NCBI GenBank assembly: GCA_038087875.1
Contig: CM075991.1
Span: 13,394,001-13,458,000, forward strand
Length of the DNA: 64,000 nt
Direction of reading: 5' to 3'
From: Malacoraja senta
Taxonomy: Eukaryota
Positions 3,693 to 6,600 of this stretch are shown here, piece after piece. Within the stretch, counting starts at the first letter, position 1. Every line of letters starts with the position of its first letter. The notes below the pieces were generated by a model. The model did not search any database. It saw only the letters and a program-made list of their open reading frames with translations, and had not been told where the DNA came from. Made by a program: the position numbers and the translations under genes.

Positions 3693-6600
3693 CTTGAGGA
3701 AGGGAAGAGAAAAGCACAACAGCTCAGTGTTACTGAACAGTCTAGGGCAGACTCAAAATGCTGGAGTAACTCAGCGGGATAGGCAGCATCTCTGGAGAAC
3801 ATGGATAGGTGACGTTTCAGGTCAGGACCCTTCTTCAGACGCAAAATGTCACCTGTCCTTTCTTTTCAGAGATGCTGCTTGACCCGCTGAGTTACTCCAG
3901 CACTTTGTGTGTATCTTTGGTGTAAGTCAGCACCTGCAGTTCCTTGTTTCTAACGCAAGGGGACATGTGACAGCAATCCGAACCCTGCCTCCCCTCTGGG
4001 TGGGGTTAACCCGTCCCTCTACCATGCAACCATATAACCCTATCACCTTTCCCTGGTGCCGATCGGTTGCTGGAGATGACGGTGTGGAGGGAGACAGTAA
4101 CCGGGGCAGGGACTCTGTGGAAAATGAATGGGCAACGCAGCGGAGAATCCCCGCATGCAGGGGGACTGGTGATGCGACACTGGGGGGGGGGGTGGGGTGG
4201 TAATTGGGGGTATGTGAGGTTGTGGTCAGGGGGAGGTAATGGGGTGGTGATTTTGTGGCCGGTGGGAGGGGGGGGGGGGAGCTCAGTGCAGCCCCAGGCA
4301 GTGTTTCTGACCTGTGGCTCCCCCTGTGGCAGTGTGGGACACAGCAGGTCACCGTCTCCAGCTGCCATAGACGTGGGGCAATGGGACGGGGGGGGGGGGG
4401 GGGGATCTAGGACTCCAGCGAGGGGCTGTTGGAGGGGGGGTCGAACAATATACTTACTACAATGACAGGTACTCAGGGTCAGGTGGAACTCCTTTAGCGC
4501 GAGGCAAACAAAAGAAAAAACACAAGAGAACAAGAATGGAACAAGATGGCGACGTGAGAAGCAGAGGCAGCAACACACACGGCAATGAAGAAGCATTGTG
4601 GTTCAGCCAAACAGCCAGGACCCCTCACCCCCATGGCGCTGGGCCACAGAGCCCCCCCTCACCCCACCGTCACAAGGGGGATACGGCTAGAGCCAGTGTT
4701 CACGGGAGGGTCTAGCTTCCCCCACCGTTGCCTCATCTCTACTCACCGGGCAACTGCACCCTGAACCACATCCCAATGTTGGCATGAAACATGTCCGTCT
4801 ACAGTGACTGACACGCTGGTGGTAACGACGTACAGACAGAGATCATCGTAGGGTCACGGGGTCACTGTGTGGGACCCTGCTGGGTGTCACAGGGGCCACT
4901 GTGTGGGTCCCTGCTGGGGTCATGGGGTCACTGTGTGGGGTCACAGGGTCACTGTGTGGTTCCCTGCTGAGGTCACGGGGTCACTGTGTGGGACCCTGCT
5001 GGGGGTCATGGGGTCACTGTGTGGGTCCCTGCTGGGGTCACGGGGTCACTGTCTGGGTCCCTGCTGGGGTCACGGGGTCACTGTGTGGGACCCTGCTGGG
5101 GGTCACGGGGTCACTGTGTGGGTTCCTGCTGGGGTGACGGGGTCACTGTGTGGGTCCCTGCTGGGGTCACGGGGTCACTGTGTGGGACCCTGCTGGGGGT
5201 CACGGGGTCACTGTGTGGGTCCCTGCTGGGGTGACGGGGTCACTGTGTGGGTCTCTGCTGGGGTCACGGGGTCACTGTGTGGGACCCTGCTGGGGGTCAC
5301 GGGGTCACTGTGTGGGTCCCTGCTGGGGTCACGGGGTCACTGTGTGGGACCTTGCTGGGGTCACGGGGTCACTGTGTGGGACCCTGCTGGGGCACGGGGT
5401 CACTGTGTGGTGGTCACGGGGTCACTGTGAGGGACCCTGCTGGGGTCACTGTGGGTCCCTGCTGGGGTGACGGGGTCACTGTGTGGGTCCCTGCTGGGGT
5501 CACTGGGTCACTGTGTGGGTCCCTGCTGGGGTCACGGGGTCACTGTGTGGGTCCCTGCTGGGGTCACGGGATCACTAGGGTTCTATGTAGGGATGGACAA
5601 CACTGCCGGCCAAGGGAGAATGCTTCTTGTTTCAGTGAAACAGTGGAGACATCATGGTTCACAGCACATGGGACAACACGCACTGCACACGGGACGACAC
5701 GCACACCAGCAAGCTGACAACACCGGAGAGGGAATCCTGGGAAAGATGATGACAAATGAAACAACAGAAACCTCTGTTGTGAGTGATGGGGCCGAGCCTG
5801 TAAAGTAGTGCGGCCCTTCACCACATCTCGCCCTGCGTCCCCTGTGGCAGTAACGGGGACCCGGATCACAAGGGAAGTAACGGACATGGGGATAACGGAC
5901 ATGGGGAGTAACGGAGACGGGAAGTAACGGAGACGGGGAGTAACAAACACGGGGAATAACGGAGATGGGGAGTAACGGAGACGGGGAGTAACGGAGACGG
6001 GAAGTAACGGAGACGGGAAGTAACGGAAACGGGGAATAACGGAGACGGGGAGTAACGGAGACGGGGAGTAACGGAGACGGGAAGTAACGGAGACGGGAAG
6101 TAACGGAGACGGGGAGTAACGGACATGGGGAGTAACGGACACGGGGAGTAACAGACGGGGAGTAACGGACACGGGGAGTAACAGACGGGGAGTAACGGAC
6201 ACGGGGAGTAACGGACACGGGGAGTAACGGAGACGGGGAGTAACAGACGGGGAGTAACGGACACGGGGAGTAACAGACGGGGAGTAACGGAGACGGGGAG
6301 TAACGGACACGGCTATTGAGGTTTTCTGGTCACTCCTCCACTTGATGCTCTCAGGGTAATTGATGAAGCCAGAGGATTATTGCAGGTTCACATTCGGAGT
6401 GTGGCGGGGTCGCAGGGCGTCAGGGTCGCGGGTCACGGTGTCGCAGGGCGTCAGGGACGCGCGTCGCGGGGTCGCAGGACCTACCTGTGGCGGCGGGGGA
6501 GGTGGGCGATTTTGCGGGAGAGGTGAGTGGGGTCTTTAGTGGAGAGATGCCGGCAGACGTGTCCTCCTCGTCCCCACCTGTGTACAACAGGAACATGCTC

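Follow-up and report, generated by a model that had tools for sequence, protein, structure and literature searches.

The window analysed here, a stretch of 64,000 nucleotides (nt) of Malacoraja senta DNA (contig CM075991.1 of assembly GCA_038087875.1), carries the beta-adducin gene (ADD2) on its minus strand, and the last coding intron of this gene holds a 34-nt cassette exon. This is very probably an alternatively spliced stop exon, which swaps the 91 residues containing the MARCKS-related domain for a tail of 11 residues, and is likely the paralogue of exon 15 of the alpha-adducin gene (ADD1), dating from before the two genes split. The elements concerned are listed below.

3419..24929, minus strand: ADD2 coding span, 14 coding exons plus the 34-nt exon
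8020..8155, minus strand: exon with the conserved PNPF...ELEEY helix, present in all isoforms
6485..6577, minus strand: upstream exon of 93 nt, Ser/Pro-rich, with a phase-1 donor, skippable
4492..4623, minus strand: 3' splice region with an AAG acceptor, a long pyrimidine tract, 130 nt free of AG, and TGC at -15
4458..4491, minus strand: 34-nt cassette exon in the last coding intron, encoding an 11-residue tail plus the TA of a split stop codon
4450..4457, minus strand: 5' splice site GTAAGTAT, the first 8 intron bases, identical in ADD1
3419..3692, minus strand: last coding exon, 91 residues of the long form, whose first base A finishes TAA after the 34-nt exon
3422..3490, minus strand: MARCKS-related basic domain, untranslated once the 34-nt exon is included

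The exon at 4491-4458 is exactly 34 nt long, with TAAAG just before it and GTAAGT just after, and the length, pyrimidine tract, AAG acceptor and GTAAGT donor described in an earlier note on this DNA were all found there. When it is read after exon 6577-6485 the frame shifts, and its last two bases together with base 3692 give TAA, in agreement with the phase-1 splicing and the TA|A stop proposed at that time. In the unspliced read-through of the donor the codons TAG TAA follow, and the protein would therefore end at the same residue as in the spliced form. The last 50 nt upstream have a pyrimidine content of 76%, the highest value in the set of 14 scored exons (internal or last coding), and the 130 nt before the acceptor contain no other AG. 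YGCY is found seven times in the 100 nt upstream of the exon, compared with 0-6 times at the other 13 exons; skate ADD1 has three in 200 nt, and YGCY gives only a slight hint of MBNL-type control. We take a YGCY cluster to be a signal for MBNL and a TGC near the acceptor to be one for SRRM4. The AG-free tract, the YGCY cluster and the TGC at -15 look like those of a regulated exon, judged by sequence. Canonical neural microexons controlled by SRRM3/4 are at most 27 nt long and preserve the frame, with a UGC near the acceptor and a long pyrimidine tract. In size and frame the exon falls outside this class (34 nt, frame-shifting); the upstream TGC is present at -15 in ADD2 and at -14 in ADD1, a 3-base motif and as such weak. 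When both strands of the window were scanned strictly for small AG...GT[AG]AGT exons behind a strong tract, two candidates emerged, the second of which was the front of the genuine 150-nt exon 19237-19088. A very high-copy element resembling a short interspersed nuclear element (SINE) lies at about 3730-3950, between the stop exon and the last exon.

Splicing was assessed in contigs of six small sequencing runs (X1, X3, X4, X11, X13 and X21), and the exon is spliced in contigs of three of them, X1, X3 and X4, which come from three studies. Contigs of X3 and X4 span 4458-4492 with zero mismatches and then continue into the start of the last exon, and one X3 contig passes from 4493 to the terminal bases of the 93-nt exon. 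A further X3 contig joins the exon to the end of the exon at 8020, with only 30 + 28 letters, which is under the bridging threshold. A contig of X1 lies on 3300-3639 and 4458-4560 with 57 letters between the two pieces, which fits the junction 4458>3692 with the upstream intron retained; this joint was taken from the table of aligned pieces alone, the SINE at 3730-3950 having swamped the joint tables. Loose ends of contigs were matched to exon ends by eye, and the joint 6485>4491 was seen as such a loose end and not as one continuous alignment. X11 and X21 have no contig over 4435-4700, and X13 leaves the exon without cover. The two junctions that had been named as a check, 6485>4491 and 4458>3692, thus have contig support from related skates (X3 for the former; X1, X3 and X4 for the latter). 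The skipped, long form is represented by unnamed 701-residue Logan proteins of related skates (P0001, P0130 and P0131). Both the included and the skipped form are made, in related skates rather than in M. senta itself.

The identity of the gene was assessed by sequence comparison and phylogeny. The spliced short protein of the window is identical to Amblyraja XP_032869963.1 (ADD2) at 590/620 residues, as against 313/653 for ADD1 and 364/670 for ADD3. Every one of its top homologues, from skates, rays and sharks, is labelled beta-adducin, and in a search of the Protein Data Bank pig beta-adducin scores above alpha. A quick maximum-likelihood tree of 21 rows, covering the first 298 residues, places the protein inside the ADD2 clade with a support of 100 in the Shimodaira-Hasegawa-like approximate likelihood ratio test (SH-aLRT), and ADD2 and ADD3 are sisters there with ADD1 apart (support 97). 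ADD1 also stands against ADD2 and ADD3 in a tree of 39 rows from which the window's protein was left out (support 99). The same genome has a separate ADD1 locus (on G000:C1). Given this distinct locus and the placement in the ADD2 clade, the reading that the gene is ADD1 fails; its assignment to ADD2 in the earlier note is upheld by the tree, the names of the homologues, the identity counts and the genome's own ADD1 locus. With assembly breaks read as X, the protein has 700 residues when the exon is skipped and 620 when it is included, matching the lengths given before (about 620 versus 700, with the MARCKS-related domain removed), and 589 when the 34-nt exon is included and the 93-nt exon skipped. 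A Pfam scan of 49 open reading frames of the window missed the adducin exons.

In the assembled sequence the frame of the last exon does not lead into the MARCKS-related domain, and the cause is an assembly error.

3636..3637: one base missing, which frameshifts the last exon; an extra C is present in runs X17 and X13

Contigs of X17, a run with 83% of the query's words, and of X13 have one additional C behind 3636, and the proteins of relatives are in frame across the region of this break; the frameshift is assigned to the assembly because of these two observations. Three further 1-nt indels, in short runs, lie near 24741, 16641 and 14573. With four 1-nt indels, gene models made from this assembly will appear broken.

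The ADD1 locus of the same genome contains a matching exon.

G000:C1:221533876-221533909: skate equivalent of ADD1 exon 15, 34 nt, in the last coding intron, with the tail GAGCAKEYLLP

The final bases of this exon are TA, the first base of the last exon is A, and the donor is GTAAGTAT, as in ADD2. The two 34-nt exons agree in length, intron, phase and split stop. They are identical at 20/34 bases, with a run of 10 nt (shuffle P 0.0006 and 0.00004, ends fixed). Of 285 AG-34-GT candidates in 40 kb the ADD1 exon scores highest, with 15 for the runner-up. The tails GAGCAKEYLLP (cartilaginous fishes) and GDGYAKEYLLP (marsupials, birds) were found in 46/121 ADD1 proteins. The human ADD1 tail, presumably GDGCAREYLLP as quoted in the earlier note, was not retrieved here, whereas the marsupial and bird tail was. 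No related tail was seen outside the two vertebrate genes among the C-termini of 93/150 deep representatives, where one representative per cluster cannot show isoforms.

The homology to the ADD1 exon that had been claimed is thus borne out by identity, phase, intron and donor within one genome. The accompanying claim that the exon predates the ADD1/ADD2 duplication fares less firmly, as homology is supported and an origin before the split is only likely. Because the ADD1 gene of the same genome has a matching exon at the same position and phase, the exon likely predates the split between ADD1 and ADD2 plus ADD3. With ADD1 outside the ADD2 and ADD3 pair, the simplest history is one origin before the duplications with losses in ADD3 and then in placental ADD2, and these two have probably lost the exon. 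We assume that the adducin duplications belong to the early vertebrate genome doublings. Two side observations concern ADD1. GCATG, which we take to be an RBFOX-type motif, occurs 58 nt downstream of the skate ADD1 exon, and the ADD2 exon has no GCATG within 200 nt. The ADD1 models of cartilaginous fishes (P0351-P0409) have 800-940 residues, some of them short-tailed, and point to large extra alternative exons.

The exact 11-residue tail is present in RefSeq models of Leucoraja erinacea (XP_055518456.1) and Amblyraja radiata (XP_032869963.1). A 589-residue form is also modelled, in which the ELEEY exon is joined straight to the 34-nt exon (RefSeq P0123 and P0129). A tail of 11 residues at this ADD2 site was found in 33 named species, namely seven cartilaginous fishes, bowfin, gar, lungfish and three loaches among the fishes, and 15 frogs, two salamanders, a caecilian, the lizard Pogona and the Tasmanian devil among the tetrapods. 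The check for conservation in the ADD2 of other species thus came out positive in sharks, rays, gar, bowfin, lungfish, amphibians and a lizard. The exon had been said to survive in the ADD2 of this lineage; it is present here and is not confined to it, extending from sharks to a marsupial. The remark that no such exon was known in mammalian ADD2 has to be corrected, since Tasmanian devil ADD2 (XP_031806523.1) ends in GVTSDSEYLSM, and the apparent absence applies to placentals. Across the 33 species Ser at -2 is kept in 33/33, Glu at -5 and Leu at -3 in 31/33 each, Leu at -1 in 29/33 and Tyr at -4 in 28/33 (replaced by Phe in gar and bowfin and by Ile in loaches), and positions -10 to -8 are variable. 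In 19/19 evaluable pairs of short and long forms (20 were tried; three are ADD1) the junction residue of the long form is E, D or G, and with any of these residues the next base completes TAA or TAG.

The tail was found in 0/104 placental ADD2-like proteins and in 0/95 ADD3 proteins, the latter mostly mammalian, both counts referring to annotated proteins, and in 1/15 marsupial ADD2-like proteins. A profile made from six tails ranked the short forms first, and no placental short form was among the best 120 of 1035. Up to 15 members of each cluster were covered, and short forms were often hidden within clusters. Because the counts are of annotation only and short forms hide in clusters, the absence from placentals and ADD3 suggests a loss and does not prove it. 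In the ADD2 of turtles (0/21), crocodilians (0/7), coelacanth (0/2), chimaera (0/2) and a bird (0/1) the tail was not found, in samples too thin to speak of loss, and the one hagfish adducin had no short form (0/1).

The proposed mechanism starts from the frame shift caused by the 34-nt exon, whose last two bases form a stop with the first base of the last exon. A stop placed on the last coding junction should spare the mRNA from nonsense-mediated decay and let protein be made. The short beta subunit would keep the head, the neck and the ELEEY helix, and would for this reason still join alpha-adducin. Tetramers with fewer or no basic tails could represent a lasting, splicing-level version of the PKC/calmodulin off state, and the spectrin-actin skeleton would be loosened in the cells that include the exon, probably neurons, by analogy with ADD1 exon 15. 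In PMC2133059, PMC4675091 and PMC3779481, calmodulin binding, a PKC site, actin capping and spectrin recruitment are attributed to the MARCKS-related domain. A wider picture can be offered tentatively, in which one ancestral vertebrate adducin stop exon was kept by alpha and beta throughout the jawed vertebrates, joint neuronal switching gave most vertebrates a tail-less tetramer deaf to PKC and calmodulin and with the new ligands EYLSL and EYLLP, and placentals lost the beta half. If so, the neuronal tetramers of placentals would never be free of regulated beta tails, unless an unannotated copy of the exon survives in them.

Several points weigh against the reading of the exon as an ancient, functional stop switch. 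The RNA nature of the sequencing runs was guessed, as none is labelled RNA, and they come from related skates (0.23-0.25 of words) and carry no tissue label. The short ADD2 protein is a prediction from contigs and protein models. Both trees are quick searches with SH-aLRT as their sole support. Among about 80,000 unconstrained 34-mers of the 40-kb ADD1 stretch, two reach 20 identities and 13 reach 19; 20/34 alone is therefore not unique, and the case for homology needs position, phase, length and donor together. The 18-base pattern common to both exons, which has only these two matches in 1.94 Gb and is therefore not a repeat, was itself derived from the two exons, and its reversed control gave one hit. 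The flanking introns of the two exons gave no alignment beyond the tract and the donor. As to history, the suggested loss in placentals and ADD3 is drawn from annotated proteins and not from intron sequence. Hagfish adducin has no settled place in the tree, so that the age of the exon lacks an outgroup date. A skate ADD3 query against the same genome gave 19 matches, each of which fell on the ADD1 or the ADD2 locus, and the missing ADD3 locus may be an assembly gap, a limit of the search or a true loss. As to function, the loach tails have diverged to EILSH and QILSH, which weakens any single function of the peptide, and in mouse the short form of ADD1 is still active in cells, so 'loss of function' may be too simple.

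Among the alternatives, the best surviving one holds that the main job of the exon is to supply a new C-terminal ligand, E-Y-L-S-L, that re-targets beta-adducin, and not just to remove the MARCKS-related domain. It is compatible with the stop-exon reading, and we consider it possible, if on balance unlikely. E-Y-L-S-L fits class II PDZ-binding or YxxL patterns. The last five residues are much better kept than the first six in the 33 species, which a pure stop exon need not do, and ADD1 keeps its different end EYLLP equally well. On the other hand, the loach tails, with Ile for Tyr and a final His, break both patterns, and gar and bowfin have Phe in place of Tyr. The same bases also adjoin the donor and are identical in ADD1 and ADD2 at synonymous sites, and signals for splicing could thus explain the constraint on these residues.

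Far less probable is an independent origin of the ADD1 and ADD2 exons, or a later copying by gene conversion or a shared repeat. Short exons offer limited statistics, other 34-mers reach or nearly reach the same identity, and ADD3, the sister of ADD2, has no such tail; yet the two exons share intron, length, phase, first bases, split stop and the 8-nt donor. Copying is opposed by introns that cannot be aligned beyond the tract and by the occurrence of the shared pattern at two places in the genome only. Since the ADD1 and ADD2 tails are distinct from each other throughout the range from sharks to marsupials, any transfer would have to precede the split between sharks and bony fishes.

A poison exon that cuts ADD2 output through nonsense-mediated decay appears slightly more improbable still. 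Poison exons are typically frame-shifting, stop-making and deeply conserved, and the 34-nt exon has all three properties. A stop triggers decay when the last exon junction follows it at a distance of more than about 50 nt. Here, judged on the last coding junction, the stop TA|A straddles that junction and does not lie at least 50 nt upstream of one, and contigs pass from the last exon to the 3' untranslated region without a break, as far as they were aligned. The protein of the mouse ADD1 counterpart, moreover, is visible on Western blots. Splicing noise, or a chance exon-like stretch in a broken gene, is scarcely credible: four frameshifts interrupt the assembled coding sequence, one of them checked with reads, but the checked indel is absent from the closely matching run X17, and the letters of the exon are without difference in contigs of X17, X3 and X4 and are conserved in 33 species.

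The closest known system is ADD1 exon 15. For the human exon of 34 nt, PMC7224547 gives MBNL2 control and a high level of inclusion in fetal brain. The mouse exon has an in-frame stop and gives a 636-residue protein on Western blots that promotes sarcomere disassembly, according to bioRxiv 10.1101/2020.12.24.424022. In organoids the exon is included in neurons and skipped in progenitors (PMC10842930). The ADD2 exon resembles it in its 34 nt, the last coding intron, phase 1, the stop at the junction, the loss of the MARCKS-related domain, the EYL core and the donor. It differs in belonging to a paralogue, with a tail that ends in EYLSL instead of EYLLP. Furthermore, the ADD1 exon is kept in placentals according to these papers, whereas the ADD2 exon apparently is not, and neuronal, MBNL2-dependent regulation has been published for ADD1 only.

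Other systems are less similar. The same exon is contained in the short ADD2 models of RefSeq and Ensembl (XP_055518456.1, XP_032869963.1, XP_015196089.2, XP_031806523.1 and others), two of them skate models with the same 11 residues; these are unnamed automatic annotations. The human ADD2 isoforms P35612-5 and P35612-6 of UniProt, for which the name 'beta-4' is used, likewise end before the MARCKS-related domain, but they part from the long form directly after KKLELD, at a point one intron earlier, continue with unrelated sequence, and use another exon. Drosophila hts makes isoforms with and without the MARCKS-related domain by alternative splicing. It does so with different exons, and no homologous tail was among the C-termini of the 93 representatives inspected. 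The exon 14 cassette of ADD3 (32 residues, QKI-5-regulated; PMC8373271) is also an alternative exon between ELEEY and the last exon, but it is in frame and keeps the MARCKS-related domain, and its counterpart by position is the 93-nt exon 6577-6485. The latter exon is skipped in skates and loaches, among them the 589- and 670-residue RefSeq models of skates, and its position at the site of the QKI-regulated ADD3 cassette means that a second alternative exon may be common to the paralogues.

In the open literature covered here, with most subscription journals and supplements outside the scope, neither the ADD2 exon nor its paralogy with ADD1 exon 15 was found described. As the exon is already part of automatic RefSeq models, what is new is the link between the paralogues and the pattern of loss, not the isoform. 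In human neurons ADD1 exon 15 acts as a switch exon, and work on myotonic dystrophy has examined it as a target of MBNL2; in dividing heart cells the short product brings about the disassembly of sarcomeres. The origin and purpose of this exon have been little studied. An ADD2 twin that extends from sharks to a marsupial suggests that jawed-vertebrate adducins have been able to shed the MARCKS-related tail through splicing for as long as the family has existed. Paralogues of such an age seldom have an alternative exon in common. The distribution also amounts to a natural experiment, with both switches in frogs, axolotl, gar and skates, seemingly one in placentals and none in ADD3. The exon reveals no new splicing mechanism and no new kind of system.

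The remainder of the window is rich in repeats. Large minisatellite and CA/GT-rich arrays at about 4860-5590, 5870-6300, 6690-7950 and 8530-9500 occupy most of the ADD2 introns. Two pieces of retrotransposons of the long interspersed nuclear element type lie on the plus strand, one at 28271-30665 with an endonuclease plus reverse transcriptase and the other at 56227-57968 with a reverse transcriptase plus an ALKBH8_N domain.

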